64,000 bases of DNA from Nitrospinota bacterium (GCA_016212295.1 JACRGO010000181.1:232-64231); one strand, 5' to 3'. Counted from the first letter of the stretch, positions 9,987 through 40,597 are shown. Notes: generated from the letters alone by a model not told the origin. Made by a program: numbers and translations.

Positions 9987-10922
9987 ATGTTCAAATCAAA
10001 CTTATTCTTCCTGAGGCGGCTCTTTCCCCTTTTATTTTTTCTTTTAATTCTGTCCTGCGGCAAGGGCAAGGAGGAAGAGATACTTGGGTCCAGTTCCAAC
10101 CCCATAAAAATCTACTTCACACCCTCTATTGACGCGGGCGCCATTGCCTCGAATTCCGCTGAATTCCTCAAATTCCTCGAAGAAGAAACCAAGTATTATT
10201 TTAAGTCAGGCATCCCGTCCAGCTACATAACAGTGGTGGAGGCCCTTGGGTCCAAGAGAGCCGACGTCGCGGTCATGAACTCCTTCGGCTACCTTCTGGC
10301 GCATCAAAAATACGGGGCCGAGGCCAGGATAACCGTCATCAGGAACGGGCATAAATTCTACAAGGGACAGATCATCGCCCACATTGACAGCGGGATCAAC
10401 AAAATCGAGGACATTCAGGGCAAAAGGTTCGCGTTTACCGACTCTTCGTCAACTTCCGGCTACCTGTTCCCAATGAAAATCCTAAAGGAACACGGCGTCG
10501 AGCCTGGAAACACGGTGTTCGGCATGAAGCATGACAACGTTGTGACCATGGTTTATCAAAGGCAGGTGGACGCAGGCGCCACCTTCCACTCCCCGCCTGA
10601 TGAAAATGGAAACATCAAGGACGCCAGGTCATTGGTCCTTACCCAATTCCCGGACGCGGCGGAAAAGATAAAGATCATAGCCGTCACGGAGGACATCATG
10701 AACGACCCGTTTGTTTTCCGTAAAGACCTGCCGGGCGAGATCACGGAAAAGGTCATAGCGGCCATTTTGAAATTCATGGACACCGAGGCCGGCAAAAAGG
10801 TTTTTAAAACCATCTATGGCGTGGACGGGGTCGTGAGGTCCAGCGACGCGGATTACGACGGCCTCCGCAAGATGGTGGAGATCAACAAAATTGATCCAGC
10901 GGAACTCCTGCGGAAAAAATGA
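9987..10922 (+). CDS. phnD: phosphonate/phosphite ABC transporter substrate-binding lipoprotein (PhnD family)
   Basis: Lipoprotein signal (LLILSCGKG). PhnD-family blocks (KRFAFTDSSSTSGYLFP). Lies directly upstream of phnC and phnE. Confidence 0.8.
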   Translation: MFKSNLFFLRRLFPLLFFLLILSCGKGKEEEILGSSSNPIKIYFTPSIDAGAIASNSAEFLKFLEEETKYYFKSGIPSSYITVVEALGSKRADVAVMNSFGYLLAHQKYGAEARITVIRNGHKFYKGQIIAHIDSGINKIEDIQGKRFAFTDSSSTSGYLFPMKILKEHGVEPGNTVFGMKHDNVVTMVYQRQVDAGATFHSPPDENGNIKDARSLVLTQFPDAAEKIKIIAVTEDIMNDPFVFRKDLPGEITEKVIAAILKFMDTEAGKKVFKTIYGVDGVVRSSDADYDGLRKMVEINKIDPAELLRKK

Positions 10923-10932
10923 AAAAAATATA

Positions 10933-11010
10933 GCACGCGGATGAGGCGGATTTGCACGGATAATAAAATTGTTTTTTAAAATCCGCGTAGATCCGTGTCA
11001 TCCGTGTTCC
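10933..11010. repeat. palindromic element (family D, catccgtg arms)
   Basis: cacgcggatgaggcggattt ... aaatccgcgtagatccgtgtcatccgtg. Related copies at 14386, 23401 and 59935. Confidence 0.45.
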
Positions 11011-11026
11011 ATTTTAATTTACCCTA

Positions 11027-11785
11027 ATGCTGAAAATAGAAAATCTGAACAAAATTTACCCCAATGGATGCCAGGCCCTGAAAAACGTGGCCTTCGATGT
11101 GAAGAAGGGTGAGTTTCTCGTTATCATAGGACTCAGCGGCTCCGGCAAATCAACCCTCCTGCGCTGCATCAACAAAATCCACGAGCCTACCTCCGGCAGA
11201 ATAATTTTCGGCGGCAAGGACATTACAACGCTTAAAGGAAAACACTTGAGGGAGGCGCGTTCGGAGATAGGCATGGTCTTCCAGCATTTCAACCTTATTC
11301 CCAGAAGGACCGTCCTGACCAACGTCATGGCCGGGAACCTTGCCAGGATGGGGATCATGCGTTCCCTCATGGGACTGTATTCCGAGGGGGAGAAGAATTC
11401 CACCAGGGAGAAAATAAAGATCGTGGGCCTTGATGGAAAAGAGGACGTCAGGGCCGACAACCTGAGCGGCGGCCAGCAGCAGAGGGTGGCCATAGCCAGG
11501 GCCTTGATGCAGAATCCGTCCCTCCTTCTGGCCGATGAGCCGGTCGCCAGCCTCGACCCGGCCACGTCCCATTCCGTGATGCGTTACCTGGAAAAGATCA
11601 ACAAGGAGATGGGCATAACCGTTATCTGCAATCTGCATTTCCTTTCCCTTGTGCGCCAGTACGCGAGCCGGGTGATAGCCCTCAAGGCCGGAGAAATGGT
11701 GTTCGAGGGAAGCCCAAGCCAGATCGACGAGCAATGGTTCAAGCGCATATACGGGGAAGACGCCATGGAAGTTACTATTCATTAG
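11027..11785 (+). CDS. phnC: phosphonate ABC transporter ATP-binding protein
   Basis: Walker [13 protein letters not shown] signature [15 protein letters not shown], Walker B LLLADEP. PhnC-type N-terminus ([13 protein letters not shown]). Confidence 0.9.
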
Positions 11786-11827
11786 CAATTCATGTTGTTT
11801 TACGCAAAGCTCGCCAAGAACGCAAGG

Positions 11828-11908
11828 GAAATTTGAAATTTGAAATTTGAAATTTGAGATTTGAGATTTGAGATTTTAAATTTTAAATCCGAAATCCGAA
11901 ATAAAAAA
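11828..11908. repeat. tandem octamer array (aatttgaa)x4 (gatttgag)x3 plus aaatccgaaatccgaaat, family E
   Basis: Direct reading of the sequence. The track ORF starting at 11861 begins inside this array. Confidence 0.7.
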
Positions 11909-11992
11909 GAATTCAGTTCCGGCTTGTCCGGGTTGGGGAATAAAGCAATCATCTTAAATCGTATCTCATGCTTGACATGGCAACCGGAAACT

Positions 11993-13018
11993 ATGAGAAA
12001 AAGGGATTATCTTAAGGCATTTCTGCTGGACCTCTTTTTATGGTCTTACTCCATCCTGGTGTGCCACAAGGTCATTTACGAAAAAATAATCCTTGAGGTC
12101 CGCTATCCCAAGTTTTCCTGGACCCAGCCTCTCTTGGCCCTGGCCGCCGGGACCGCCCTTGCGCTGCCGCTCTTTCTTCCCCGATCCTTTTCCCTTGGCA
12201 AGAGAATAATGGGGATTTATCCAGGCGATCAGGGCCGCCCCTTGTTGAGAGAGCCTTATGGCCTTTTCTCTGTCTTCTTTCTTATCATCACCTTTTGGGC
12301 GGGCCTTCATTTCAGCCAGGTATCAGTCAAGGAATTTTTTTCCGAGAGCGGAATGGAGGGGGCTCGGAAAATTTTCGCTTCCCTGTTCCAGCCCAATTTC
12401 TCAATCTTAGGCGAATCCCTGTTCGCGGCCATTGAAACCATTTACATGGCCTTCATAGCAACCGCCTTGGCGCTGCCCCCGGCCTTTTTCCTGAGTTTTT
12501 TTTCAGCCAGGAACCTCATGGCCCAAAACAAGGTCTTGTCCTGGACCTATCTTGTCCTCCGCTTTATTTTAAACGTCACCAGGGCCATTGAGCCCCTGAT
12601 CTGGGCCATTATTTTCTCGGTCTGGGTGGGAATCGGCCCCTTCGCGGGGATGCTTGCCCTTTGCCTCCACTCCGTTTCCTCCCTGGCGAAGCTTTATTCA
12701 GAACAAATAGAAAACATCGATGAAGGTCCGCTGGAGGCCATGACCGCCACCGGGGCGCATCCTGTCCAGGTGGTCTGGTTCGGCGTGGTCCCGCAAATTG
12801 TCCTTCCTTTTTTGTCCTACACGATCTATAGGTGGGACATCAACGTCCGCATGGCCACGGTTATAGGGCTTGTGGGCGGCGGGGGCATAGGAACGCTTCT
12901 CATGCAGTACCAGGGACTCGGCAAGTGGAACGAGGTGGGCCTTATTGTTATTATAATAGCCCTGATCGTCTGGGCCATGGACTATGCCAGCGCCAAGATC
13001 AGGGAGGCGATTAAGTGA
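11993..13018 (+). CDS. phnE: phosphonate ABC transporter permease (PhnE family)
   Basis: Polytopic membrane protein with the ABC permease EAA-like loop. The ATG at 11993 (MRKRDY) is preferred because the track start at 11861 lies inside the tandem repeat. Confidence 0.8.
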   Translation: MRKRDYLKAFLLDLFLWSYSILVCHKVIYEKIILEVRYPKFSWTQPLLALAAGTALALPLFLPRSFSLGKRIMGIYPGDQGRPLLREPYGLFSVFFLIITFWAGLHFSQVSVKEFFSESGMEGARKIFASLFQPNFSILGESLFAAIETIYMAFIATALALPPAFFLSFFSARNLMAQNKVLSWTYLVLRFILNVTRAIEPLIWAIIFSVWVGIGPFAGMLALCLHSVSSLAKLYSEQIENIDEGPLEAMTATGAHPVQVVWFGVVPQIVLPFLSYTIYRWDINVRMATVIGLVGGGGIGTLLMQYQGLGKWNEVGLIVIIIALIVWAMDYASAKIREAIK

Positions 13019-13304: not shown

Positions 13305-14294
13305 ATGAAAAGCACGCACGTGTCCCTTAACGCAGGAAAAGCCGGATTCCTTATAGCCTTTATGTCCCTTGTCCTGGCCATTGGGGCCTGCGCCCCGACC
13401 CGGCCAGCTCTTGCCCCGGAGGAAAAGTTCAACGCCGAGGCCCATTTCCCGGAGGAATTCCAGGCAGAGCGCGCCATTCCCAACTGCAACCAGAACGTGG
13501 TGTGGCATTCCTCAATGAAGGCGGAAACCCAGGACATGGCCGCTGAAATCCATGCCCTGTACGCCGGCCTGCTTCCAAATCTTGATGACAAGGCCAAGGA
13601 AGACCTTCTGAAAAAATCGCAAAAAAGCCTATCGAAAAGGCTGATCCGGAATTTATTGATTGAAGGGAAAAGCATCAACCTGGGGGCGTTCAGGATCAAG
13701 GGTTATTGCTGGACTGACGAAAACGGAAAAAAACAGCCGCTGGTCGCTTATAGATCGGCCATAACCCCCTGGCCCAAAAGGCCGGACAGCTGCTATCGCT
13801 CCCTGCTGAAAAACGGCCATATAAAAAATATCATCAACCTGTATGACGGCTCCATTCCCCTCAAGGACCATCAAACAATGGAGAAGGAAGTGGCCAAGGA
13901 AATGGGAGTTAATTACATTGATACAACCGACCCGCAAATAAACATTCCGCCTTTCCGCGAACTGGTGGAAAAGGAGGCGGACTTCAACAATCCGGAAAAC
14001 AGGCGGAAGGCGTCGGAGAGCGTGTCGCGCATCATCAACGAATTTGTCCTGAGCTCCAATGGAGAAGCCCCGAAAGGCAATGTCTATTACCACTGCGCCG
14101 GAGGCATGCACCGCACAGGGATTATCAGCGGCGTTATACAGAGGTGCGTGAACGGCATGGACATGGAGACAATCAAGAAAAGCTATGCCCGCCACGTCGC
14201 TTACGAGAACGAGGAAGTCAAGGGCGGCTTCGAGGAATTGAACCTTCGTTTCATTCAAGAGTTTGATTGCGGACTGATCAAGCAAAACCCATAG
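13305..14294 (+). CDS. secreted lipoprotein with protein-tyrosine-phosphatase (CX5R) active-site motif; PTP-like phosphatase or cysteine phytase candidate
   Basis: Signal peptide with lipobox (LVLAIGACAP). VYYHCAGGMHRTGIISGV matches the HC-X5-R-[ST] P-loop of PTP/dual-specificity phosphatases. RBS gaggaag. Confidence 0.6.
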   Translation: MKSTHVSLNAGKAGFLIAFMSLVLAIGACAPTRPALAPEEKFNAEAHFPEEFQAERAIPNCNQNVVWHSSMKAETQDMAAEIHALYAGLLPNLDDKAKEDLLKKSQKSLSKRLIRNLLIEGKSINLGAFRIKGYCWTDENGKKQPLVAYRSAITPWPKRPDSCYRSLLKNGHIKNIINLYDGSIPLKDHQTMEKEVAKEMGVNYIDTTDPQINIPPFRELVEKEADFNNPENRRKASESVSRIINEFVLSSNGEAPKGNVYYHCAGGMHRTGIISGVIQRCVNGMDMETIKKSYARHVAYENEEVKGGFEELNLRFIQEFDCGLIKQNP

Positions 14295-14385
14295 CGCGGC
14301 ATGGACGCAGCCAAAAGGAAAACAACCCCACAAATGGCAAATCACAAAGAACATAGCTTCGCAAATTGATTAATGAAAAGGCTGG

Positions 14386-14482
14386 AACCACGAATTAACA
14401 CAAATTAACACTAATATTTCATGAAACATACTTTTTGGCCTTTAGAAGCAATTAGTGTTCATCCGTGTCCATTCGTGGTTCC
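14386..14482. repeat. family D palindromic element
   Basis: aaccacgaat ... cattcgtggtt outer arms and cacaaattaacactaat ... caattagtgttc inner arms. Confidence 0.45.
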
Positions 14483-14539
14483 TAAGCTTTTGTTTTGTGA
14501 AGAAAAACTTTGAAATTCCGATACAGTACAATCATCGAA

Positions 14540-14650
14540 TGTCCAAAACAATTCCATTGCCTTTTCCTTGTTTGCTCTTTGTAATTTTGGTTATTGAGAT
14601 TTATTTGCTATTTGGCAATTGTGATTTGGAGCTTCACAAAACTTTGTGAT
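14540..14650. repeat. AT-rich 'tttgtaatttt..atttgctatttgg' element (family F)
   Basis: Resembles one arm of the large palindrome at 33925-34072. Confidence 0.35.
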
Positions 14651-14715
14651 CTTTGTGCGCTTTGTGGTAACAATAAGTTTCATGGATTTGCAGCACAGGA
14701 AAGTGAACCCATCCC

Positions 14716-17700
14716 ATGTGGGCCGAAACCATAGAAAAACTGCTTAACGTAAGGCGCGGTGAGTGGAAAAGCGCCCTACTGATGTTTTTCTATTGCATGA
14801 ACTCCATTTCCGCCCCCTTCGTTATAGGCAAAATAGTTTCCAGCACCCTCTTTCTTAAACGGGTCGAGCCTCAATACATCCCTTATACCTACATCGGGGT
14901 CGCGGTCTTCACGTCCCTGGCGCTGTGGTTTTACACCAGGATCAGCCATCTGTTCCGGTTGGACCGCCTGATCATCGGCAGCACTGGCATATTGATAGTT
15001 ATTACCCTCGCCTTCCGGCTGGCCATAGCCGAGACCGCCGACGCCAGCTCCCTTGTGGTCCTGATAGTGATGGGCGGCCTCTATGTTTTCATTCAAATAA
15101 TGGGTTCCCTTTGCATCATCCAGTTCTGGATATTCGCCAACCATCTGTTCAGCACCAGGGAGGCTAAGCGGCTTTTCGGATTAATCGGCACTGGAGGGGT
15201 CCTTGCCAACATGCTCGGCGGAATGGCTGTCCAATGGTTCGTGGAGGACGGCGGCGTTGAAAATATGCTCTATCTTGTGGCCGGGAACCTTTTCGCGTGC
15301 ATCCTATGCGTTTTTTTCCTGGCACGGCCGGGCCATATAAGTTTCATTGAAGAGACGGGCGAACCCAGGCATCCGGCCAAGGCCGAAAAGGAAACCAGCG
15401 CCTCCAAGGGCGTTTTCTCGGATATAGTGAAATCCGATCTCCTGCTTGGAATCGCGGGAATCGTCATTATCACAAAGCTGGTAACCAACATCACGGATTA
15501 TCAGTTTAAAATGGCCATCCGCGCCACTTATGATGAAACGCAATTGGCCTACTTTTTGGGCGGCTTTTACATGTGGATAGGCAGCATAGCCAGCGCGATG
15601 CAGCTTTTGTTCACCGGACGCCTTTTGCAGAGATTCGGCATTTTATTCGCCGTCATTCTGCTTCCCGCCTGCCTGCTGGCCGCCTCCTTGGGCATTCTTC
15701 TTACCCCCTACCTCTTCTGGCCGGTTATAATGCTCAAGGCGTCCGACAGCATGTTCCGTTACTCCATTTATGACTCCACCTTCCAACTGTTCTTTCTTCC
15801 AGTGTCGCCCAAGCTCCGGTCAAGGGCCAAGTCGGCCATTGAAGGCATACTAAAACCCTCCTTCACCGGGATTGCCGGCCTCATGATCATAGGAATGAAT
15901 TATTTCCTCGATCCAGCCCAGCTCTCGTATCCTGTCTCGATTTTTCTGGTGATCTGGATTTGGCTGATAGTCCGCAACCATAAATATTATATAAGTTCAC
16001 TTGCGGACACCCTGCACCGCAGGAAAAGCTTTTCCGGCGGGACCGTCGCCACTGAGGTTGTTGACGATACCCAGGCCAACGCCCTGGTCGCGGCCCTGAA
16101 GTCGCCGGATGAAAGGTTGGTTTTGGCCATAATGGAAGTTCTGGCGGAATCGCCTCGAATCAACTTTGACGAACACGCGGCCGAGCTATTTAGCCACCCA
16201 AGCCCAAGGGTCCGCGCCGCCGCCCTGGCGCGACTCGGCAAGAGAGGGGATTCCCGTTATGCCGCCAGGATCAGCGGATTTCTTTCCGACGCGGATGAAG
16301 CCTGCCGCGCCGAGGCCATAACCGCATATTGCGCCACGGCAAGGGAAAGCGCCATGCCATTGGTGAAGGAATTCCTGAAGGGCAGGTCGCCGCTTATCAA
16401 GAGGGTGGCGCTGGCAGGCATTTTTAAATTTTGCGGCCCTGGGGGGGCATCCTTGGCCCGGGAAGAATTACAGGACATGCTCTCCTCTCCCGACCCACTG
16501 GTCCGCGAGGCCGGGGCCGAGGTCCTGCAGGAAATCAAATCCGGCCTTTTCATCGAACAGCTACAAAAACTGATCAATGATCCTGTTATAGAGGTGCAGA
16601 CGGCCGCCATCCAGGCGGCGGGTGAGCTGAAAAAACAAATTTTCCTGCCAATCCTGCTCGACAAATTGCGGAATCCCAAAACTTCCCGCGTCGCGACGGA
16701 AGCCATCTGGAAATTCGGGGGAGAAATTTGCGGTGCCTTGTCCGTGATTCTATCCGGCCAAGACAAGGACAAAGCCCTTCGTCTCGCCATTCCCAAAATT
16801 CTTTCCCGCATAGGCACGCAGGATTCCCTGGACGTTCTTTTCACGAATTTACAAACCAATGACGAGGACGTTCGCCTTAATATCCTGAAGGCAGTGAACC
16901 GTCTCCTGAAAAACAGCCTGCCCTCCGTCCTCGCGTATCCGAAGGAGCAGTTGGGGCTTCTGCTGCGCAAGGAAATTGAAAATTATTATACGCCTTTGCT
17001 GATAATTAAAGACGTGGGATTGGAAGCCGGCAATACGCTTTTGTATTTTGCCCTTCATGAGCGCATGGAAGACACAATGGCAAGGATATTCAGGATCATG
17101 GGCATTATCCACGGAGAAACCATGGAGACCATTTACATGAATATCTTTTCCAACGCTCCCAAGGCCCGCGCCAACGCCATTGAACTGCTGGACAACATCA
17201 TGGGAAGCGGCCCTGAAAAAAAGGCCCTGTTCGCCCTGCTCGAGTCCGCTGATGTTGAGACGAAACTGGAGGCCGGCAAAACTTTCTTTAACCTGGAGAA
17301 CAGGAAACCCGCTGAGTGGCTTTCGGAGCTTATGGATGACAAGGACCACGAGTGGGTGAGGGCCTGCGCCGTTAAACTTGCAGGAGACCTGAAAATGGCG
17401 GAGTTGCTGCCTGAAATCATGGACGCCTGCGGATCGAGCCGAGGCATAATCCGGGAAGCCGCGGTGTTCGCCCTATGGAAAATCGCTGGGCTTGATAAAT
17501 TGAAAGAGCTGGCGCACAATAGAAAAACTTCCGAGTTGCAAAATGAAATCAATGAATTCATACGCCGTTCAGAGCACGGAAAAAGCGCCATGATTTCCAC
17601 CCTGGAAAAAGTCCTCTTCCTGAAAAGCATAGACCTTTTCTCGCAAATTCCCGGCCAGCATTTGACCCAGGTGGCCAAGGTGGCGAAGGAAGCCGCGTTT

Positions 17701-18018
17701 GAAAAGGATGAGACCCTTATGGAGCAAGGTGAAAAAGGAGACTATCTGTACATCATCGTGGAAGGAGAGGTCAAAATTCTTATCAACGGAAAAGAAGTTG
17801 CACGGCGCGGCAAGAAGGAATGCCTGGGTGAGATGAGCATCCTGGATTCAGAGCCCCGCACCGCCACCGTGGCCGCGGCCACGGATGTCGTCCTCCTTAA
17901 GATCGATGGAGAGGATTTCTCCGATCTACTGAGTGAATACGGCGAGCTTGCCAAGGGGATCATCAGGATACTAAAGAAAAGGCTGGTGGAGGCCGAGGCC
18001 AGGTCTTCAGCAAAATAG
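14716..18018 (+). CDS. TLC/Npt-like nucleotide-transporter-type membrane domain fused to HEAT (PBS-lyase-type) repeats and a C-terminal cyclic-nucleotide-binding domain
   Basis: The N-terminal roughly 430 aa are polytopic and carry a motif (LLMFFYCMNSIS...IGKIVSSTLFL) resembling the conserved N-terminal block of the ATP/ADP translocase family. The middle has multiple HEAT-like repeats (PSPRVRAAALARLG, DPLVREAGAEVL, DPVIEVQTAAIQAAG). The C-terminus has a CAP-family cNMP-binding fold (GEMSILDSEPRTATVAAATDVVLLKIDGEDF). Confidence 0.7.
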   Translation: MWAETIEKLLNVRRGEWKSALLMFFYCMNSISAPFVIGKIVSSTLFLKRVEPQYIPYTYIGVAVFTSLALWFYTRISHLFRLDRLIIGSTGILIVITLAFRLAIAETADASSLVVLIVMGGLYVFIQIMGSLCIIQFWIFANHLFSTREAKRLFGLIGTGGVLANMLGGMAVQWFVEDGGVENMLYLVAGNLFACILCVFFLARPGHISFIEETGEPRHPAKAEKETSASKGVFSDIVKSDLLLGIAGIVIITKLVTNITDYQFKMAIRATYDETQLAYFLGGFYMWIGSIASAMQLLFTGRLLQRFGILFAVILLPACLLAASLGILLTPYLFWPVIMLKASDSMFRYSIYDSTFQLFFLPVSPKLRSRAKSAIEGILKPSFTGIAGLMIIGMNYFLDPAQLSYPVSIFLVIWIWLIVRNHKYYISSLADTLHRRKSFSGGTVATEVVDDTQANALVAALKSPDERLVLAIMEVLAESPRINFDEHAAELFSHPSPRVRAAALARLGKRGDSRYAARISGFLSDADEACRAEAITAYCATARESAMPLVKEFLKGRSPLIKRVALAGIFKFCGPGGASLAREELQDMLSSPDPLVREAGAEVLQEIKSGLFIEQLQKLINDPVIEVQTAAIQAAGELKKQIFLPILLDKLRNPKTSRVATEAIWKFGGEICGALSVILSGQDKDKALRLAIPKILSRIGTQDSLDVLFTNLQTNDEDVRLNILKAVNRLLKNSLPSVLAYPKEQLGLLLRKEIENYYTPLLIIKDVGLEAGNTLLYFALHERMEDTMARIFRIMGIIHGETMETIYMNIFSNAPKARANAIELLDNIMGSGPEKKALFALLESADVETKLEAGKTFFNLENRKPAEWLSELMDDKDHEWVRACAVKLAGDLKMAELLPEIMDACGSSRGIIREAAVFALWKIAGLDKLKELAHNRKTSELQNEINEFIRRSEHGKSAMISTLEKVLFLKSIDLFSQIPGQHLTQVAKVAKEAAFEKDETLMEQGEKGDYLYIIVEGEVKILINGKEVARRGKKECLGEMSILDSEPRTATVAAATDVVLLKIDGEDFSDLLSEYGELAKGIIRILKKRLVEAEARSSAK

Positions 18019-18065: not shown

Positions 18066-20150
18066 TTACCTCCCCGTCTCCCGGCCAAGAATCAACTTGG
18101 CGGCGTCACTGATTTCCTCGTTTTGAGACCAAAGGACCTCGTCCTTGCCGGATTTCAGGCATTCAAGGGCCAGCGTTAAGGGGCTTAAGCTGTCGGCGGT
18201 CCCGGCCGGGAAGGCGCTCTTAACAGACTCAAGGGCTTTTTCGCACAAAAGAGCTGTTTCCGGTTTTGCCAGTCCTGAAAAAAATTGGACCGCGGCGGGA
18301 AAAACGGCATTAGCGGGAAGGGACCGGATGAACGCCAGCCTCTCTTCAACGAAAAGGCCGGTTTCCTCGACTTTCCCTTTCAACGCCATTTTTTTGATGA
18401 GATAAAAATACGTCTCGAAGATCAATTGAATCATTGGACCGTTAAGTTGCGCGGTAAGGGATCCCCCTTGAATGTTCTTTTCAAAACGCAAGAAACAGTC
18501 CGCGGCCTCGTCGTATTTCCCTGAATGAAAGCAGGCGTCTCCAAGGTTGGCCAGTGAGGGGGGGGAATCTTTTTTTTCTTTCAACGCGCGGAGAAAACAT
18601 TCCTCCGCCTTCTCCATAAGGCCAAGAAAACGGTAATCACAACCCATGTTGTTCAATGCGCCAAAGTCTTCCGGCTTTTTTTCAAGGCATTTTTTATAAC
18701 AATCCACCGCCTTTTGGTGCTCCCCTTTGAAACTATAGGCAAAGCCGAGTAGAAAAAGGAGAGAGAACATTTGTTCCGGATCGTCACCGGAGTTTTGCAG
18801 AAGGTCCTGAATTCTCTTGATCGCCTCATCCCCTTTTTTCTCCTTCAAAAGCTTGTATGCTTCCGATATTTTGGAGTTTGAAAAAAAAGAGGGGCCCGGT
18901 TCCAGGTAAAAAAGTCCTGGAACCGCGGCCTTTCCGGATTTTACTCCTCCGGCCCCGTTCCCTTCGCCATATTTTTCGCGGGAATGCGCGATGTATAAAA
19001 AATTTATTATTCCCCTTGAACGGCCTCTCAGGTCTTTCACGTGCTCCATGTGGTAATACGAACAGAATAACGGGTCAGCCGCGCCATAAAAGGATTTTTT
19101 CGGCTCCAACCGGACCTTTTTGAGAAGCCCTCTGTTGATGAGCCTCTTCAGCAGGACGCTGACCTCCTTGCCTTCCCAGCCCAGGCGCCGGGCCAATTCC
19201 GACGGGGAAACGCGCTGGCTGTCGCGCAACAGGGTATCCAGAAGCTTCCGTTCCTTTGGCGGAGTATTCTGGATGAGGAACCGGTAATGAGGGGAGAGGA
19301 TATCCAGCATTCTCTGAAATATCCTGAAAGGGGAAAAGGATGGCGCTATTGCCAAGGCCTGATACATGGCAAGGGTCAGCCTGGGATTTCCCCTTGTAAA
19401 GTGGAAGAGGGTTTTAATAGCCGGGAGATTATTTTGAATTTGGCCGTCCAAGCGCTCCTTGCTGTTTAAGGCCGCCATTTTCTCCAGGACCGTTAACGCT
19501 TCCTCTTCCTTAAAAGGGGCCAGGGAAATAGTGGTAAAAGACCTGGACAAAAGAGGGGAAAATTTTTTGTTTTCCAGGGTGCAGGGAACGGCGGTCCCTA
19601 TGATAGACAAGCAGCCACGCGCGGAAAAGAAGGAGGCCATCAACTTGGAGGCAGCCGGATCGTGTAAAATGAAATCCAGCAAGTAGTCGAAATCATCAAT
19701 GCACAAAAGAATTTTCTTGTTGCTTTGGCGGGTGAATTTCTCCAATAATTGGCGGGCCTGCTCCCATTGGGCCGCAGGGTTTCTGAAGAGTCCTTTCACA
19801 ATGCGGTATTCCTCCTGGGAAATTCCGCAGCCACCCGGCAAGCCGGCAAGGGGGGCCAGAACTCTTTCCAGGAAGCAGGAAAAGGATGAAAAAAAACCGG
19901 CCCGACCCGGCAGAAAGACCGGTTCCCATTGAGAATTCAGTGGCGTTTTTTCCCTTGCTGCATGGAACGCCATCAAAAGAAAATGGGTCTTTCCTCCCCC
20001 CCACGGCGCCAAAATCAAGCCGTGCCTTGAGGTTTGGGAATCTCCAAGGGAATCCAGAAGGGAGTTAAACTCCACGTCCCTGGCCGTGAAAAGGGAGGAC
20101 AATTCCTCTCGTCCGTGAAATTGAAAATTAAAAAGGGGGGGGGAAATCAT
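18066..20150 (-). CDS. archaeal-type ATPase (ATPase_2/AAA_16-like P-loop NTPase) with winged-helix and C-terminal TPR repeats
   Basis: FHGREELSSL lead-in with Walker A ILAPWGGGKTHFLLM and Walker B ILLCIDDFDYLL. wHTH-like segment VSPSELARRLGWEGKEVSVLLKRLINRGLLKK. At least three TPR repeats (AYSFKGEHQKAVDCYKKCLE..., ALNNMGCDYRFLGLMEKAEECF..., LANLGDACFHSGKYDEAADCF). Confidence 0.7.
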   Translation of the reverse strand: MISPPLFNFQFHGREELSSLFTARDVEFNSLLDSLGDSQTSRHGLILAPWGGGKTHFLLMAFHAAREKTPLNSQWEPVFLPGRAGFFSSFSCFLERVLAPLAGLPGGCGISQEEYRIVKGLFRNPAAQWEQARQLLEKFTRQSNKKILLCIDDFDYLLDFILHDPAASKLMASFFSARGCLSIIGTAVPCTLENKKFSPLLSRSFTTISLAPFKEEEALTVLEKMAALNSKERLDGQIQNNLPAIKTLFHFTRGNPRLTLAMYQALAIAPSFSPFRIFQRMLDILSPHYRFLIQNTPPKERKLLDTLLRDSQRVSPSELARRLGWEGKEVSVLLKRLINRGLLKKVRLEPKKSFYGAADPLFCSYYHMEHVKDLRGRSRGIINFLYIAHSREKYGEGNGAGGVKSGKAAVPGLFYLEPGPSFFSNSKISEAYKLLKEKKGDEAIKRIQDLLQNSGDDPEQMFSLLFLLGFAYSFKGEHQKAVDCYKKCLEKKPEDFGALNNMGCDYRFLGLMEKAEECFLRALKEKKDSPPSLANLGDACFHSGKYDEAADCFLRFEKNIQGGSLTAQLNGPMIQLIFETYFYLIKKMALKGKVEETGLFVEERLAFIRSLPANAVFPAAVQFFSGLAKPETALLCEKALESVKSAFPAGTADSLSPLTLALECLKSGKDEVLWSQNEEISDAAKLILGRETGR

Positions 20151-20206: not shown

Positions 20207-21229
20207 ATGAATCTAATGGGGTTGTCAAATCCTTCATTTATTTTGATAACCAGCTTATGTTATCATAAAAAATTAAAAAACTTATATTTTCTTATAAACC
20301 AGGAGAAAAATTCCTTGGCCGAGGAAACCTCAACCAAGCCCAAAGGAAAAGGGAGCCCGGAATCCTACATAAAGCTTGCGAAGATTTCCCTTGGACTTCA
20401 GGAGTTTCAAATTGCCGCGGCCGCGTGTGAAAAGGGTTTGGCTAAATTCCCCCAAAATCCCGGTCTTCTTGTGGCTAGGGGAGAAACCCTTGTTCTGGCA
20501 TATAATTTCGGGAAAAAAGCCGAGCATCTGAAATCAGCCCTGGAGAGCTTTGAATATGCCTTGAAAATAAATCCGCATAATTACACGGCCAAATTTTTAA
20601 CCGGCCAGATATATATTCAATTAAAAAAATACGACTTGGCCGCTAAACGATTTTCCTCCATATTGGAAATCGACCCCAATGATATCCGGGCCAAGTCCCT
20701 TTTGGAAAAGGCCCAAGGCAAAATGGCGCCTCCCAAGGAAAAGCCGAAGGCGGCCCCAGTCAGCGCTGTAAAGGAAAAAATGGAAGACAAGCCGGAGGAG
20801 GAACAAGTCCAGGAAAAAGAAGCGCTTGCCGGTGACCAAAAGGAGGGTATACTGGACATGTCGGATAGCGATGAATCGGCCAACCACGAATTCCTGATCT
20901 CCCGTCTGGGAATCTTTCAGAAGCTGGAAGGAATAAAGAGCATCAATCTGGTGGACAAAAATGGGAATCTCCTGAAATGCCAAAAGAAGTCCGATCTTGA
21001 CCCCGAACTTCTTTCTTCCATGGCCGGGAATGTTTACAGATCCACTGTCAGGGTGGTTGATAGATTCCACAGCGGGGATTTCGTGTACGGCATGGTGATG
21101 TGCCAGAAATCATACATATATATAGTGGCCGCCCGGTGGGCGGTGTTGGTCCTGGAGACCTCCACTGACGCCAGCCTGGAGATTCTGGAGAAAAAAATCC
21201 ATCAATACCTTGGAGAACTGGACCTTTGA
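20207..21229 (+). CDS. TPR-repeat protein with C-terminal Roadblock/LC7 (MglB-like) domain
   Basis: TPR repeats at the N-terminus (ALESFEYALKINPHNYTAKFLTGQIYIQLKKYDLAAKRF), an acidic linker, and a Roadblock-like C-terminus (IKSINLVDKNGNLL...SSMAGNVYRSTVRVVDRFHSGDFVYGMVMCQKSYIYIVAARWAVLVLETST). An alternative TTG start at 20315 with RBS aggaga is possible. Confidence 0.6.
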   Translation: MNLMGLSNPSFILITSLCYHKKLKNLYFLINQEKNSLAEETSTKPKGKGSPESYIKLAKISLGLQEFQIAAAACEKGLAKFPQNPGLLVARGETLVLAYNFGKKAEHLKSALESFEYALKINPHNYTAKFLTGQIYIQLKKYDLAAKRFSSILEIDPNDIRAKSLLEKAQGKMAPPKEKPKAAPVSAVKEKMEDKPEEEQVQEKEALAGDQKEGILDMSDSDESANHEFLISRLGIFQKLEGIKSINLVDKNGNLLKCQKKSDLDPELLSSMAGNVYRSTVRVVDRFHSGDFVYGMVMCQKSYIYIVAARWAVLVLETSTDASLEILEKKIHQYLGELDL

Positions 21230-21591
21230 TACAGGAAATAGCGGCTATATTAAAGCAACTTAACGCCACGGAAGGAATCAAGGGGAGCCTTATAATCACC
21301 CCGGACGGCATGCCGGTCGCGTCTCTTCTGGAAGGGGGCCAGGACATGGACACAGTGGCCGCGATTTCCTCCTCCATTTATCTTTCCATCACAAAGTCCA
21401 TGGAAAAACTTGCCATAGGGGATGTGAACCGCTATCTTCTATGCACTGAATTCGCAAGGTTTTTTATAATAGGTTTAGGAAAGATGATACTAATAGTTTT
21501 AGCGGCCCATAACATACAAATCGCAAAGGTCAATGTGGCGATTTTTCAGGCAGCCAACGCCATCAAGAAATCAGGCAGATTGGACGTTTAA
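21226..21591 (+). CDS. mglB: Roadblock/LC7 family protein (MglB-like GTPase-activating partner)
   Basis: Roadblock fold pattern IKGSLIITPDGMPVASL...DTVAAISSSIYLSITKSM. TTG start overlapping the upstream stop (TTGA), with RBS ggagaa upstream. Lies immediately upstream of the MglA homologue. Confidence 0.7.
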   Translation: MIQEIAAILKQLNATEGIKGSLIITPDGMPVASLLEGGQDMDTVAAISSSIYLSITKSMEKLAIGDVNRYLLCTEFARFFIIGLGKMILIVLAAHNIQIAKVNVAIFQAANAIKKSGRLDV

Positions 21592-21593
21592 AC

Positions 21594-22763
21594 ATGGTTC
21601 AAATAAACTTCGCCAAAAAAGAAGTCAGTTGCAAAATCGTTTATTACGGACCCGGCCTCAGCGGCAAGACAACCAACCTGGAAATCATTTACAAAAAAGC
21701 GCCTGATAGCAACAAAGGCAAGATGACCTCCGTGGCCACGGAAGGGGACCGCACGCTGTTCTTTGATTTTTTGCCGCTGGACATAGGAAAAGTGGGCGGC
21801 ATGAACACCAAATTTCAGCTATATACCGTCCCTGGGCAGGTCTATTACAATTCCACCAGGAAATTAGTCCTCCAGGGCGTGGACGGCGTCATCTTCGTGG
21901 CCAATTCAGAGAAGGGCAAAATGGATGAAAACATCGAGTCCCTTAAAAACCTTGAGGACAATCTTAAGGAGCAGGGGATTAACATAAGCGAAATCCCCCT
22001 GGTGATTCAATTCAACAAAAGGGACCTCCCGGACGCCACGCCCGTGGCGGAGATGGAGGCTAAACTCAATCCTTGGAAGGTCCCTACCTGCGAGGCGTCC
22101 GCCTTCAGGGGGGAAGGCGTGTTCCCGACCTTGAAACTTACGGCCGCCATTGTTCTGGATAGACTGAACAAAAAATACGCCCCTAAGTCCGCCTCCGACA
22201 AGGCCATTGCCGAAGTCAACGGGCATAAGCTCCTCCTGGCCGATTTTGAAAAATTTTGCGTCACTCATTACCGCCTGTCCGGGAAAAAGGAGCCTCCCGG
22301 CGGCGCAAAATTCTCACGGTCGGAAAAAGAGAATTATCTCAACATATACATTAACAATTTCCTGATAAGGTTGGCGGCCAAGGAGCAGGGGATCGAGGCT
22401 GATGAAAAGGCGGTGGCCGCCCAGATAGAAGGCGCCGCTTCCAAATTCGGCTCAAAGGACAATTTTATAAAATACCTGAAAGAAAAAAATCTGACGGAAG
22501 AAGACTATAAAGAGGAAGCCGTTAACAGAACATTGTCCAATAAACTTTTAGCCGGCATAATACCGGACCACCGGGACAGAATCTCCCCTAAGGAAGAACA
22601 GCTTAGGGAGGTTTATGAAAAAAACAGGGACAAATTTCCTGGGGCCTTTGACCAGGAGAGGAAAAAGGTGGAAGCCCAGGCCCTGAAGACGAACAGACTT
22701 CAGGTAATGGAAGAGATGTACAAGGAAATCAGGAGCGAGGCCCGGATTAAAACTTATTTATAG
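21594..22763 (+). CDS. mglA: MglA-type Ras-like GTPase fused to a C-terminal SurA/PpiD-N-type chaperone-like domain
   Basis: Residues 1-195 align closely with Myxococcus MglA (CKIVYYGPGLSGKTTNLEIIY, TDRTLFFDFLPL, YTVPGQVYY, NKRDLPDA). Residues about 200-389 (VNGHKLLLADFEKF...NFLIRLAAKEQGIEADEKAVAAQIEGAASKFGSKDNFIKYLKEKNLTEEDYKEEAVNRTLSNKLL...) follow the SurA/PpiD N-terminal chaperone-domain pattern. One uninterrupted ORF. Confidence 0.8.
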   Translation: MVQINFAKKEVSCKIVYYGPGLSGKTTNLEIIYKKAPDSNKGKMTSVATEGDRTLFFDFLPLDIGKVGGMNTKFQLYTVPGQVYYNSTRKLVLQGVDGVIFVANSEKGKMDENIESLKNLEDNLKEQGINISEIPLVIQFNKRDLPDATPVAEMEAKLNPWKVPTCEASAFRGEGVFPTLKLTAAIVLDRLNKKYAPKSASDKAIAEVNGHKLLLADFEKFCVTHYRLSGKKEPPGGAKFSRSEKENYLNIYINNFLIRLAAKEQGIEADEKAVAAQIEGAASKFGSKDNFIKYLKEKNLTEEDYKEEAVNRTLSNKLLAGIIPDHRDRISPKEEQLREVYEKNRDKFPGAFDQERKKVEAQALKTNRLQVMEEMYKEIRSEARIKTYL

Positions 22764-22792
22764 CACCCAACCTCAAAACGGGGAGAGAGGCA

Positions 22793-23287
22793 ATGGACGA
22801 GTTTAAGGCGTCCCGGTTGATTTTCTACAAGGACGATATAGACCAGATTGAAAAGGTTATCGACGAGTTCATAAAAAAATCGGATTCCAAGTGCTCCATC
22901 CTGATAGACAAGGACGGGCATTTGGTCACCAAGAGAGGCCAGTCCACTCAATTCGATCCGGAGACTTTGTCCGCGCTAGTGGCCGGAAGTTTCGCCGCCA
23001 CAAGGGAAATGGCCAAGTTGCTGGGGGAAACGGAATTCACGGTATTGTTCCACAAGGGCCTGAAGGACAACATCCATCTTTCCCTCGTGGGGAACAGGGC
23101 CATCCTGGCCACCATATTCAACGACCAGACCACCATCGGGATGGTGCAACTGTACCACAAGGAGGCGTCCGAAAAAATAGAAAAGATATTCGAGATTTCA
23201 GCGAAAAAACCGAGGAAGGAAACAAAATTCCACGAGGATTTCGGTAAGGACGCAAAGCAGAAACTGGACGAATTCTTTGGAAGTTAA
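22793..23287 (+). CDS. Roadblock/LC7 family protein (third copy in the locus)
   Basis: CSILIDKDGHLVT...DPETLSALVAGSFAATREMAKLLGE...HLSLVGNRAILATIF Roadblock pattern. RBS ggagagagg. Confidence 0.65.
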   Translation: MDEFKASRLIFYKDDIDQIEKVIDEFIKKSDSKCSILIDKDGHLVTKRGQSTQFDPETLSALVAGSFAATREMAKLLGETEFTVLFHKGLKDNIHLSLVGNRAILATIFNDQTTIGMVQLYHKEASEKIEKIFEISAKKPRKETKFHEDFGKDAKQKLDEFFGS

Positions 23288-35031: not shown

Positions 35032-35715
35032 TCAAGCCTGATTTTCCTGTTTCAGGTAATCCTCAAGTCTATGCCGCACTATTTCCCCCTCGGCCATGAA
35101 TATGATATCTTCCGCGATATTGGTGGCCAGGTCCGCGATCCTTTCCAGATGGCGCGAGGCGGAGAGGGTATGGATGGCCCTTTGAATGGTGTCAGGGTCT
35201 TCCCGCATCAGGTCCTGCAACGCCACGTACATTTCCTTATTCATTTCATCCACCGCGTCATCCTCTCGCCAAACCTTCCTGGCAAGGGCCGTGTCTGAGT
35301 TGACCAAGGCGTTAAGGCTTTCATGGACCATGGCCTGGACCCTTTCCATCATTTTTGAAAAATTAAGCGGCGCCCGGATGGGGGGCTGAGTGGATAGATA
35401 AACGCCCCGTTCCGCTATGTTCACAGCCAAGTCGCCCATCCTCTCAAGGTCGTTATTTACCTTCATCACTGTGATGATAAAGCGAAGGTCCTCGGCCACA
35501 GGCTGGTGCAGGGCAAGGACCTTGAGGCATTCCTCCTGAATCTCGTTTTCCTTGGCGTCGATTTCGTCGTCCCCCTTCATCACATCCTCTGCCCATTCAG
35601 TGTTTCTCGCGACCAGGGAGTTGATGGCCTTGTTAATGGCCCCCTCCACCATTGACCCCATGTACAGCATTTCTTTTTTCAAATTTTCCAAATCCCGTCT
35701 AAGGTGTTTGGGCAT
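35032..35715 (-). CDS. phoU: phosphate signalling complex protein PhoU
   Basis: Two PhoU repeats with the conserved E/D..D motifs (DDEIDAKENEI, DDAVDEMNKEM). Downstream of pstB. Confidence 0.9.
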   Translation of the reverse strand: MPKHLRRDLENLKKEMLYMGSMVEGAINKAINSLVARNTEWAEDVMKGDDEIDAKENEIQEECLKVLALHQPVAEDLRFIITVMKVNNDLERMGDLAVNIAERGVYLSTQPPIRAPLNFSKMMERVQAMVHESLNALVNSDTALARKVWREDDAVDEMNKEMYVALQDLMREDPDTIQRAIHTLSASRHLERIADLATNIAEDIIFMAEGEIVRHRLEDYLKQENQA

Positions 35716-35774
35716 TTTTTTTCTCCTGAAAAATCATGGCGCTTTTTAAAAAGCGTTAACTATGTTTGTAATAG

Positions 35775-35925
35775 TTCACCGCGGAGACGCAGACGCGGAG
35801 AAAATTTAGAGTCTATTTGTAATACGCTCGATTCCATCTCTTAGGAAGGCTATAGGCTGAAGGAAAGAAATAATTTTTTTCTTTAATTTACATACTCAGC
35901 GCCTTTGCGTCTCCGCGGTGAACTA
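35775..35925. repeat. family C GC-hairpin (long-loop variant) between pstB and phoU
   Basis: caccgcggagacgcagacgcggagaaaa ... 90 nt ... gcgcctttgcgtctccgcggtg. Confidence 0.6.
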
Positions 35926-35936
35926 TTATCTATATT

Positions 35937-36701
35937 TTACCCGAATCTCCCGGTCACGTAGTCTCCGGTCTTTTTCTTCTTTGGACGGGTGAACACTTGC
36001 GTCGTCTCCCCGAACTCCACCAATTCACCGCCGTCCAGGAACACGGTAAAGTCAGACACCCTGGACGCCTGCTGCATGTTGTGGGTGACGATCACGATGG
36101 TATATTGCTCCTTCAACTCGAAGAGAAGGTCCTCTATTTTGGATGTGGAAACAGGGTCCAGGGCGGAGCATGGCTCGTCCATTAGAATGATCTCAGGCTG
36201 CATCGCCAGGGTCCTGGCTATGCAAAGCCTTTGCTGCTGTCCTCCGGAAAGGGCCAGGGCCGACCCGTTCAGCCGGTCCTTGACCTCCTTCCAAAGCGCC
36301 GCCTTTTGAAGGGAGGTCTCCACCAGTTCCTGAAGATTTTCCGTGTTTCCGTGAATTGAAGGTCCCCATGAAACGTTCCTGAAAATCGACTTGGGAAAGG
36401 GATTGGGCTTCTGGAAGACCATGCCGATTCTGCGCCGCACCTCAACCGGGTCGACTTCCGCGCCGTATAAGTCTATGCCCCTGAAAAGGATCTTGCCGTC
36501 CATGCTGACGTTCTCTATGAAATCATTCATCCGGTTAAAGGCCCTGAGCAGGGTGCTTTTCCCGCAGCCTGAAGGCCCGATAATGGCCGTGATTTTCCTG
36601 TCGGCTATGCTTAAGCTGACGTCTTTAACCGCGGAGGAGTCTCCATAGCGAATCGTCAGATTTCGCGTCTCCAGAGTCGGCGTGGAAGGAGTGTTTACCA
36701 T
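35937..36701 (-). CDS. pstB: phosphate ABC transporter ATP-binding protein PstB
   Basis: Walker [10 protein letters not shown], signature [16 protein letters not shown], Walker B ILMDEP. ATG at 36701 (MVNTPS) overlapping the pstA stop. The track N-terminal extension is rejected. Confidence 0.92.
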
Positions 36702-37555
36702 TTCTTGTCCCTCAGCGAACGATGTCTGATAAGAATGGCCGAGCCGTTCATGATGATAAGGACCGCGAGAAGCACTATTATACCGGCGGCGGCCAATTGA
36801 TGAAATTCCTCTTGGGGACGCGAGGCCCAGTTGAAGATCTGGATAGGCAAGGCGGTAAAGGCGTCCATCGGCCCCTCCGGCGTAAAGGCCACGTAGGTCA
36901 GGGCCCCCAGCATGACCAGAGGGGCGGTCTCGCCCATTGCCCGGGACAGCGCTAAAATGAACCCGGTGAGAATTCCAGGCAGCGCCGTGGGAAGAACATG
37001 GTGCCGTATGGTTTGCCATCGCGTCGCGCCCAGGGCAAAGGCCGCCTGCCTTAGAGACGTCGGCACCGCGCGTATCGCCTCCCTGGAGGAGATTATTATG
37101 ACGGGAAGGACCAGCAGGCTGAGGGTAAGGCTCCCGGCCAGCACGCTGCGGCCTAAAGCCAGGCCCCGGACAAAGATGGCCAGGCCGAGGATGCCGTAAA
37201 CTATGGAAGGGACCCCCGCCAGGTTCGCGATATTGATCTCAATAAGCGTGCTAAGGCGTCCGGGCTTGGCGTATTCCTCCAGATAAATAGCGGCGGCCAC
37301 GCCCAATGGAATGGAAAAAAACGCGGAAAAGGAAATGAGCCATACCGTGCCCCACAGGGCGGATTTGATCCCTGCCTTTGCCGGAAAGCGTGAGGGAAAA
37401 TTATCAAGGAACTGCCAACTCAGCCAGGGCAGCCCTTCTATGGTCACATGGTAGAGCATGACGGCAAGGAGAAGGACGCAAATCCATGTCATTGACATGC
37501 AGGTGATTTTAAACGCGCTTGCTATAAATTTTCGTTTTTTAAGATTGGAGGACAT
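36695..37555 (-). CDS. pstA: phosphate ABC transporter permease PstA
   Basis: PstA permease blocks (EAA loop [13 protein letters not shown]). The start is uncertain: the ATG at 37555 or the TTG at 37597. Confidence 0.88.
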
Positions 37556-37612
37556 AAGTAATTTTTTCGGAATTTTAAAGTTTTCATTACAAATCAATGG
37601 AATTGCTGTGCG

Positions 37613-37738
37613 AGTGACTAAAGTGAGCTAAAGTTTAAAGTGACTAAAGTTGTGGAAGTTCTTTTTTACTATAAACAAGAAACCTACCACAACTTTAGTC
37701 ACTTTAAACTTTAGCTCACTTTACACTTTATTACTCAC
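37613..37738. repeat. family B 'ctaaagt' palindrome between pstC and pstA (overlaps the pstC stop)
   Basis: agtgactaaagtgagctaaagtttaaagtgactaaagttgtgg ... ccacaactttagtcactttaaactttagctcactttacact. The arms are about 42 bp and near-perfect. Confidence 0.7.
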
Positions 37739-38643
37739 TGATACACCTCCCTGTACTTGCCCAATACCTGATGGGCTATCAAATTCGATCCCAATGTAAT
37801 GGCGAAAAGCAATAAGCCCACCGCGAAAATGGTCTGGTATTCCAAGGTCCCGGCCGGGGTGTCGCCCAGGCTCACCTGCACGATGTAAGCGGTCATGGTC
37901 TGTATGCTTTCCAGCGGATTCAGTGTCAATTTGGGAGTGGCGCCGGCGGCAAGGGTCACCGCCATTGTCTCTCCTATGGCCCTGGACAAGGCAAGGACAA
38001 AGGACGCCATGATGCCGGACAAGGCCCCCGGCACAACTATTCGGGTGGAAACCTCGAAGGAAGTCGCCCCGACCGCGTAGGCCCCCTGTCTAAGGGAATC
38101 AGGCACGGCGCGCAAGGAGTCGTCGCAAAGGGAGGCTACCATTGGCAGGATCATTATCCCCACCACGATTGCCGCGCTGGCGGCGTTGAACACCTGCGCG
38201 GACGGGAAAAGAAATTGCAGAATGGGAGAAATAAAGGTAAGGGCGAAATAGCCGTACACCACGGTGGGTATTCCGGCCAGGACCTCCAGTACGGGCTTGA
38301 CGATATTCCGCGCGCGCGGTGACGCGTATTCGCTTAAATAAATGGCGGCAGTGAGCCCCACCGGAATGGCGATCAGGCTTGCCCCTGCCACAACCAGAAA
38401 GGTCCCGCAAACAAGGGGCAACACGCCGAATGAGCGCGGCATCAGCAGAGGCGACCAATTAGTCCCAAAAAGGAATTCCCAAGGAGAAACCTGAATGAAA
38501 AAGGCAAAGGACTCCTTGACCAGGACAAAAATAATCCCGATGGTGGCGGCCACTGAAATGAGGGCGCATAAGAGCAGGACGATCTTGACGCACTCCTCCC
38601 GCCACTGTTTTCTCCAATTTTTTTTTAAATCATCTTCGAGCAA
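37735..38643 (-). CDS. pstC: phosphate ABC transporter permease PstC
   Basis: PstC permease blocks ([16 protein letters not shown]). No ATG is available, so the TTG start at 38643 is taken. Confidence 0.88.
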
Positions 38644-38662
38644 TTCTTGTCCACCGTTTTAT

Positions 38663-38728
38663 TAACCGCGGAGGCGCAGAGAAAAGTTCTTTAATTTCAA
38701 TATATTTTACTCTGCGTCTCTGCGGTAT
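38663..38728. repeat. family C GC-hairpin between pstS and pstC
   Basis: aaccgcggaggcgcagagaaaag ... ctctgcgtctctgcggt. Confidence 0.6.
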
Positions 38729-38748
38729 ATTTTAAATTTCTAAGTCCC

Positions 38749-39756: not shown

Positions 39757-39809
39757 GAAAATCTCCTTGATTTATTTTGAAAAGTTAATCGTAAATAATT
39801 TAGCCGTAG

Positions 39810-39945: not shown

Positions 39946-39993
39946 GTTGCGGCCATGTCGCGCTATAAAGATAAATCATGTTATCCACCCCTG

Positions 39994-40593: not shown

Positions 40594-40597
40594 AAAT

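Follow-up and report, generated by a model that had tools for sequence, protein, structure and literature searches.

Within a 64,000-nucleotide stretch of DNA from a Nitrospinota bacterium (GCA_016212295.1, JACRGO010000181.1:232-64231; hereafter the window), a gene at 14716..18018 on the plus strand encodes an 1100-amino-acid protein that fuses an NTT/TLC-type membrane transporter domain, a long arm of HEAT repeats and a C-terminal cyclic-nucleotide-binding domain (cNBD). We hold this family identity and architecture to be close to certain. The reading that we favor, to which we give an even chance as a blended figure, is that the protein is an NTT-type transporter of the cytoplasmic membrane, tuned by a cytoplasmic cyclic nucleotide through its HEAT-cNBD arm. 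The architecture itself is not novel, as it was catalogued in 2017 and is very common; the window protein is a further, Nitrospinota member. What is added here is modest detail on a published architecture: the Nitrospinota member, a residue-level comparison with canonical NTTs, a topology assignment and evidence for an intact sensor.

The complete open reading frame (ORF) runs for 1100 codons from an ATG start to a TAG stop without an internal stop. Its product is a 100% match in nr to NCBI MBI5186534.1, which is named "MFS transporter" and comes from a Nitrospinae/Nitrospinota metagenome-assembled genome (MAG); the fusion protein is thus already public under a generic name and is not new. Scored against the Pfam gathering thresholds, the protein matches TLC (PF03219; 65.8 bits against 21, E 4e-18, best stretch residues 123-326), MFS_1 (40.5 against 33.4), HEAT_2 in four stretches (104.7 against 27.7), HEAT (51.9 against 23.5) and cNMP_binding (cyclic nucleotide monophosphate, cNMP; residues 994-1075, 76.1 against 27.5, E 2e-21). 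The order of these domains in one polypeptide, seen both in Pfam and in the layout of an AlphaFold2 (AF2) model, is the one that defines the fusion family: NTT/TLC, HEAT repeats, C-terminal cNMP-binding domain. The model, computed from an input of 48 family sequences, has a mean pLDDT of 86.8 and a pTM of 0.76; its 12 transmembrane (TM) helices are followed by a solenoid of about 28 helices and then by a beta-roll. An earlier, sequence-only reading of the window had described a tripartite protein with a TLC-like N-terminal polytopic domain, a long HEAT run in its middle and a CAP-type cNMP-binding fold at its end. All three elements stand, borne out by the Pfam scores together with the fold of the model, the profile matches to solved NTTs and the intact ligand-contacting residues set out below.

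We also considered that two or three adjacent genes had been joined by a sequencing or assembly frameshift, since some genomes encode the cNBD as a separate downstream gene (PMC5381601). Against such an artefact, the frame is uninterrupted, and the same fusion recurs in an independent JGI metagenome, where a 1099-amino-acid relative (P0002) shares 76% identity and matches the window protein at its start and end positions. At least 29 distant homologues (25-33% identity) carry the three domains in unchanged order, with source names that include Elusimicrobiota, Planctomycetes and Marinimicrobia besides unnamed metagenome proteins. In the confident model, moreover, the TM12 helix (residues 400-440) leaves the membrane and continues to residue 440, reaching the short, low-confidence linker (residues 438-446) that joins it to the HEAT arm. 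Because dozens of distant homologues keep the domain order, the ORF is genuine and a mis-join is excluded; an artefact receives practically no weight from us.

Fusions of the NTT-HEAT and NTT-HEAT-cNBD types were described by Major, Embley and Williams (2017, Genome Biol Evol 9:480; PMC5381601) as a separate, monophyletic clade that is broad in bacteria, was transferred to oomycetes and is found also in Chlamydia trachomatis. According to the same study, the fused clade is far commoner in environmental bacteria than the canonical transporters, the C-terminal end of its members is evolutionarily labile through repeated fusion and fission of the cNBD, and the function of the fusions was uncharacterized as of 2017. 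Binding of cAMP by the cNBD, its authors speculated, might adjust NTT-mediated uptake; "ligand-gated transport", as the sequence-only reading also suggested, is a hypothesis that they had already offered (PMC5381601). A search of the text of that paper for "nitrospin" gave 0 matches, neither Nitrospinae nor Nitrospinota being mentioned.

Our searches agree with a place for the window protein in this clade. Its best matches are fusion proteins of like order, reaching E 1e-172 at 33% identity, and all strong ones lie between E 1e-84 and 1e-172, whereas canonical NTTs match weakly (E 9e-12 and 8e-07). The nearest other fusions share 25-36% identity over 80-100% of the length. When a full-length profile was run against 1.84 billion 50%-identity cluster representatives, 20,821 proteins were returned at E <= 1e-30, an upper bound that includes partial matches; the best 150 representatives all had E < 1e-250 and were all of fusion length. 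By length, 146 sequences divide into 53 of fewer than 1000 residues (no cNBD), 82 of 1000-1200 (one) and 11 of 1200 or more (probably two), classes consistent with an NTT-HEAT core machine to which a regulatory module may or may not be added. There is a further large set of NTT-HEAT proteins without a cNBD, whose source names include Deltaproteobacteria, Myxococcota and Vicinamibacterales. The taxonomic spread is read from such source names and from the 2017 survey; a scan of genome contigs with the single protein found no relative. Automatic JGI names for the homologues include 'AAA family ATP:ADP antiporter' and 'ATP/ADP translocase/HEAT repeat protein'.

The membrane domain (residues 1-440; 14716..16035, plus strand) has the 12-TM fold of the NTTs, as judged by the AF2 helices, Foldseek and profile alignment alike. 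A profile of 13 N-terminal domains from family members matched Chlamydia pneumoniae NTT1 (CpNTT1, 9j3n) at E 5e-33, with profile positions 13-432 on chain positions 18-509, and Arabidopsis NTT1 (AtNTT1, 9j3j) at E 1.5e-27. By Foldseek, the modeled domain reaches TM-scores, normalized to the target, of 0.69 on AtNTT1 (9j3m) and of 0.63 (9j3o) and 0.60 (9j3n) on CpNTT1. The TM helices span approximately residues 17-424, their boundaries being taken from the AF2 helices; a crude Kyte-Doolittle scan gave fragmented calls. Counted by these boundaries, 24 lysines and arginines fall on the proposed cytoplasmic side against 5 outside, which argues for an N-in/C-in topology with HEAT arm and cNBD both on the cytoplasmic side. 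The cytoplasm is the site of cNMP synthesis. The model and the charge count thus show a predicted 12-helix NTT/TLC (MFS-fold) protein of the cytoplasmic membrane with both termini inside.

Although the fold is shared, most of the residues that mark canonical NTTs are not. In the Arabidopsis carrier, according to Heinz et al. (2014; PMC4256464), the charged residues K155, E245, E385 and K527 are highly conserved and matter for transport, K527 being linked to nucleoside-triphosphate transport. These positions were mapped through the 9j3j alignment at an offset of 84 (K71, E161, E301 and K443, with residue types as expected), and columns were counted in an alignment of 48 sequences and in 146 sequences made up of the top 50%-cluster representatives, the window protein and P0002. 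Three of the four charges are changed. K155 corresponds to Y59, in a column where 124 of 146 sequences have Y or F and the rest some other residue, never K; E245 corresponds to Q127, where 127 of 146 have E or D; and K527 corresponds to T384, in a variable column that likewise never holds K. Only E385 is kept, conservatively, as D261 (D in 134 of 146). The NTP/NDP exchange transporter model TIGR00769 gives 63.6 bits, short of its cut-off of 387.2, while Pfam TLC clears its own threshold. Judged by these scores, the membrane domain is a superfamily member and not an equivalog, homologous but not equivalent to a canonical NTT. K380, which is K or R in 118 of 146 sequences, stands four residues before the K527 column, one helical turn away, and could fill a K527-like role.

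These comparisons bear directly on the explanation that the automatic names imply, namely that the protein is an ATP/ADP (NTP/NDP) antiporter of the classical NTT type known from Chlamydia, Rickettsia and plastids, with extra domains attached. The Pfam TLC match and the fold shared with AtNTT1 and CpNTT1 agree with it, and microsporidian NTTs tolerate changes at the canonical charged positions (PMC4256464); the fusions, on the other hand, form a monophyletic clade apart from the canonical carriers (PMC5381601), and their K155 and K527 equivalents are never lysine, with E245 a glutamine here. Because the lysines are missing and the TIGR00769 threshold is not reached, and because the host is free-living, the window protein is probably not a classical ATP/ADP exchanger. 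A free-living Nitrospinota bacterium, such as the one represented by this MAG, lives without a host cytosol from which ATP could be drawn. Overall, we regard the antiporter explanation as very improbable.

Other residues of the membrane domain are strongly conserved. The family's most conserved stretch, REAKRLFGLIGTGGV (residues 148-162; 15157..15201, plus strand), occupies the TM4-TM5 turn and is common to the canonical EAKRFYxLFG; it aligns with EAKRFY/EAKKFY of 9j3n and 9j3j, and its K151, R152, L153 and F154 vary little or not at all across the 48 sequences. DYQFK, Q296, R302, R348, R370 and K380 are also retained in the window protein. That the strongest conservation of the whole protein lies in its membrane domain (AKRLFG, DYQFK, Q296, R302, K380) points to selection for transport and not simply for holding the protein in the membrane.

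The window protein departs from most of its family at four charged positions. The pair S42-S43 in TM1 (14839..14844, plus strand) replaces an R-D found in most members and a K-D found in canonical NTTs, by column counts in both sets; the canonical RDTKD aligns to a family GRTxRDTLFL, which reads GKIVSSTLFL here. With Q127 (15094-15096, plus strand) and H143 (15142-15144, plus strand), these serines form a charge-depleted variant whose full combination occurs, among the sampled sequences, only in the window protein and P0002, the common family patterns at positions 42/43/127/143 being R/D/E/D or R/D/E/E. S42, S43 and Q127 were entertained as the mark of a degenerate, non-transporting domain and were downgraded to a minority variant, given that about one-third of the 146 representatives lack the TM1 R-D pair. 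This charge-depleted TM1/TM4 variant, a minority form as far as the alignments reach, is a detail that the Nitrospinota member adds.

Following the membrane domain, residues 451-953 (16066..17574, plus strand) make up the HEAT arm, a predicted alpha-solenoid in the cytoplasm whose roughly 28 helices make up some 14 HEAT-like hairpins; it is supported by the Pfam HEAT_2 and HEAT matches and is modeled with a pLDDT mostly of 85-93. The arm has a conserved motif of its own, RANAIELLDN (residues 817-826) followed by N827 (window 17164-17196), within which E823 is invariant in 48 of 48 aligned members, those lacking a cNBD included; we regard this motif as a candidate interface with the transporter domain. 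Cyanobacterial members of the family are often annotated as phycobilisome lyase or NblB-type HEAT proteins. The corresponding equivalog models fall far below their cut-offs with the window protein (NblB 25.3 bits against 300; CpcE 13.3 against 330), and HEAT_PBS is matched by only 2 of the 48 family members.

Since HEAT repeats are classical protein-protein interaction surfaces (PMC5381601), the arm could alternatively recruit partners under cNMP control, the whole protein being a membrane-anchored signaling scaffold or 'transceptor' whose NTT-like domain anchors or senses without net transport. An arm with an invariant E823 would suit such a role, as would the substitutions R42S, D43S, E127Q and D/E143H in the window protein and P0002, E127 being the counterpart of the functionally important AtNTT1 E245. 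Yet the most conserved residues are those of the membrane domain, and all of them, R348 and R370 among them, are retained; a missing TM1 R-D pair is not unusual in the family; and the fusion gene has no conserved neighbor that could encode a partner. We therefore consider a scaffold without transport unlikely, though by no means negligible.

The C-terminal cNBD (residues 962-1099; 17599..18012, plus strand) has the layout of a CAP/PKA-type domain, with N-terminal helices, a beta-roll (residues 991-1064) and C-terminal helices in the AF2 model. Its sequence matches in the PDB include PKG, PKA-R, MloK1 and CRP, and Foldseek aligns it with the bacterial cNBD 2pqq at a target-normalized TM-score of 0.75-0.79 and a root-mean-square deviation of 2.2-2.5 Å. 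The phosphate-binding cassette (PBC), G1038-E1039-M-S-I-L-D-S-E-P-R1048-T1049-A1050 (17827..17865, plus strand), aligns at every residue with the PBCs of the PKG cNMP-binding domains (FGERALLYDEPRTA/SA) and shows the pattern G-E ... R-[ST]-A. The positions G, E/D, R, S/T and A are kept in essentially all of the 29 cNBD-bearing members of the 48-sequence alignment. As the PBC contacts are intact here and conserved in the family, ligand binding by the domain is very likely retained. Its sequence would fit PKG-like (R-T-A), MloK1-like and PycTIR-like domains equally, and the CRP type is also a good match.

The PycTIR likeness raises the possibility of an anti-phage effector of the Pycsar type, in which the cNBD would sense cCMP or cUMP from a pyrimidine cyclase and trigger a membrane-damaging domain. 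The PADLOC PycTIR model does score higher on the cNBD (87.2 bits, E 3e-25) than Pfam cNMP_binding does, and the solved PycTIR cNBD, 8jsk, is among the PDB matches. That match, however, covers only positions 31-142 of 288 in the model, that is, the cNBD part; the protein has neither a TIR nor a Pycsar TM effector domain, and no cyclase was found in an adjoining gene or among the larger window ORFs scanned. A very large family with many cNBD-less members and a conserved 12-TM fold looks housekeeping-like, rather than following the sporadic pattern of defense islands. The Pycsar identity suggested by PADLOC was rejected on domain coverage and context, and we view it as exceedingly improbable.

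Returning to the favored reading of a cNMP-tuned NTT-type transporter, we envision the following sequence of events. The membrane domain would carry out secondary transport of an organic solute, either nucleotide-like or phosphorylated in some other way. A cytoplasmic cyclic nucleotide would bind the C-terminal domain, and its binding would shift the packing of the HEAT arm on the cytoplasmic face of the transporter. The altered packing would in turn tune the rocker-switch, or alternating-access, cycle, such that transport is matched to the cNMP state of the cell. For this mechanism of cNMP-tuned transport, taken by itself, we put the chances at even or a little below. Substrate, ligand and gating of the fusion protein are what we infer from the comparisons above.

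Several points weigh against the favored reading. The window protein lacks R42, D43, E127 and D/E143, charges that most members carry, and their loss could mean altered coupling or lost transport. The allosteric path from the cNBD through the HEAT arm to the transporter is one that we purely infer. Heinz et al. caution that NTT substrates are not predictable from sequence (PMC4256464), and for that reason the missing lysines do not exclude nucleotide transport. Our literature search for a functional study of any family member found none, later papers merely citing the 2017 work, and to that extent the remark in the sequence-only reading that such architectures are poorly characterized was fair. 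The surroundings of the gene offer no help: comparison of the 76% and 33% relatives revealed no conserved gene neighborhood, hence no hint of a substrate, and no nucleotide cyclase appeared among the larger ORFs scanned in the 64-kb window. With no conserved neighbors and no cyclase in those ORFs, the context is silent on substrate and on ligand source.

A broader proposal, which we put forward tentatively and with more doubt than conviction, is that the family as a whole consists of widespread cyclic-nucleotide-gated secondary transporters of free-living bacteria, in which a HEAT lever joins a cNMP sensor to a carrier of a substrate other than ATP/ADP. A more daring variant would have the carrier export or import the cyclic nucleotide itself, with the cNBD as a substrate-level sensor. 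NTTs are textbook markers of energy parasitism, known from Chlamydia, Rickettsia, microsporidia and plastids, while Nitrospinota are a free-living marine lineage of nitrite oxidizers. If the broader proposal holds, a hallmark of intracellular parasitism would gain a signaling-linked role in free-living cells. The Nitrospinota member provides another case in which ATP theft is implausible and supports a different substrate or role. The residue comparison with the 2025 NTT structures offers targets for mutagenesis, namely the absent K155/K527, K380, AKRLFG, DYQFK and the PBC.

Regarding its genomic setting, the fusion gene is preceded by a 420-bp non-coding stretch, and the gene after it (18066..20150, minus strand) runs toward it, an arrangement that makes the fusion gene look monocistronic. 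The sequence-only reading had located it between a phosphate-scavenging cluster and an MglA module, which is largely right. On the 5' side lie a PilJ-type methyl-accepting chemotaxis protein and a PhnD/PhnC/PhnE-like ABC transporter (9987-13018), and downstream are Roadblock/MglB-like and small-GTPase-like genes. Neither flanking cluster keeps its linkage to the fusion gene in the other family members compared. Directly upstream (13305-14294, plus strand) is a 329-amino-acid predicted lipoprotein with a signal peptide ending in LAIGAC and the CX5R phosphatase motif HCAGGMHRT, for which weak matches to Y_phosphatase3 and Y_phosphatase2 are the sole Pfam matches. A protein with a similar C-terminus is encoded upstream of the homologous gene in L001. 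This protein tyrosine phosphatase (PTP)-like gene is the lone neighbor shared with the close relative, and at that distance it is uninformative.

The convergent neighbor (18066-20150, minus strand) encodes 694 amino acids with TPR repeats and a MarR_2-like winged helix (residues 303-347), along with faint CARF/Csa3-like PADLOC matches at E ~2e-3. Beyond it, 20207-23287 (plus strand) encodes a TPR-Roadblock fusion (340 amino acids), two more Roadblock/LC7 (MglB-like) proteins (121 and 164 amino acids) and a 389-amino-acid protein. The last of these has a weak Arf/small-GTPase match at residues 63-162, followed by a SurA_N_3-like region; if real, this would be an unusual MglA-like architecture.

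The 420-bp intergenic region holds a long imperfect hairpin at 14377-14491, with 32-nt arms at 14384-14415 and 14451-14482 that are 84% complementary; folded as RNA, 14370-14495 yields -40.8 kcal/mol, with z = -6.7 relative to shuffled sequences. Within the window the arm sequence occurs only once, and no such hairpin precedes the gene for the 76% homologue. An Rfam scan of this region detected no riboswitch, only sub-threshold miRNA-precursor-like matches that stem from the long hairpin, and a scan for promoter and terminator consensus sequences did no better than on shuffles. Closer to the gene, at a distance of 48-74 bp from the ATG, 14642-14668 holds three 9-bp units in tandem, CTTTGTGAT, CTTTGTGCG and CTTTGTGGT, which the imperfect palindrome TCACAAAACTTTGTGA (14634-14649) overlaps. 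Together these repeats (14634-14668) may form a putative regulator binding site. Their half-site order differs from that of CRP.

Farther along the window, a second phosphate-acquisition cluster (35032-41569, minus strand) comprises PhoU, a PstB-like ABC ATPase, permeases and a PBP_like_2 binding protein; once the Phn-like cluster is counted as well, genes for phosphorus uptake are abundant in the window. Adjoining it, 41611-44559 encodes a 982-amino-acid hybrid histidine kinase with dCache, HAMP, PAS and receiver domains. Alpha-amylase, Malt_amylase_C and maltokinase N-cap domains occur in a run of three ORFs at 48183-54542 (plus strand), which overlap in part and resemble a TreS/Mak (GlgE-pathway-like) alpha-glucan cluster. 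The start at 50972 overlaps the preceding ORF by about 180 bp, so that the start sites are provisional and a fusion is possible.

Compared with known systems, the window protein shares with the fusions of Major et al. the order NTT (PF03219), HEAT (PF13646/PF02985) and cNBD (PF00027), as well as the idea of cNMP control, and differs in the S42/S43/Q127/H143 combination that it has in common with P0002 alone, where R/D/E/D-E is usual. With the canonical NTTs (AtNTT1 9j3j/9j3m and CpNTT1 9j3n/9j3o; TC 2.A.12) it has in common the 12-TM fold, at the target-normalized TM-scores of 0.60-0.69 given above, the FWxFAN...EAKR motif and, where AtNTT1 has E385, an acidic residue. Identity to these carriers is nevertheless only 16-18%; the window protein fails the TIGR00769 cut-off, lacks K155, E245, K527 and the TM1 K-D pair, bears approximately 660 extra cytoplasmic residues and belongs to a free-living host. 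The Pycsar effectors PycTIR and PycTM resemble it in cNBD sequence (8jsk at E 8e-14, besides the PADLOC match), but the window protein is without a TIR domain, an adjacent cyclase or a defense-island context, and its cNBD is partnered with a conserved 12-TM transporter.

The sperm Na+/H+ exchanger SLC9C1, the bacterial channels MloK1 and SthK and the HCN/CNG channels likewise combine a membrane transport domain with a cNBD at the cytoplasmic C-terminus, alike in fold and PBC. SLC9C1 ranked first by E-value in Foldseek, yet with a global TM-score of about 0.11, and a similarity of overall fold was rejected on that value in favor of an analogy of composition only. Their membrane domains are unrelated, being of the NhaA fold or voltage-gated-like channels as opposed to the NTT/MFS fold here, and their cNBDs are joined through a C-linker or a voltage-sensing domain, where the window protein has a 500-residue HEAT solenoid. 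SLC9C1 nonetheless sets a precedent for a secondary transporter equipped with a cNBD.

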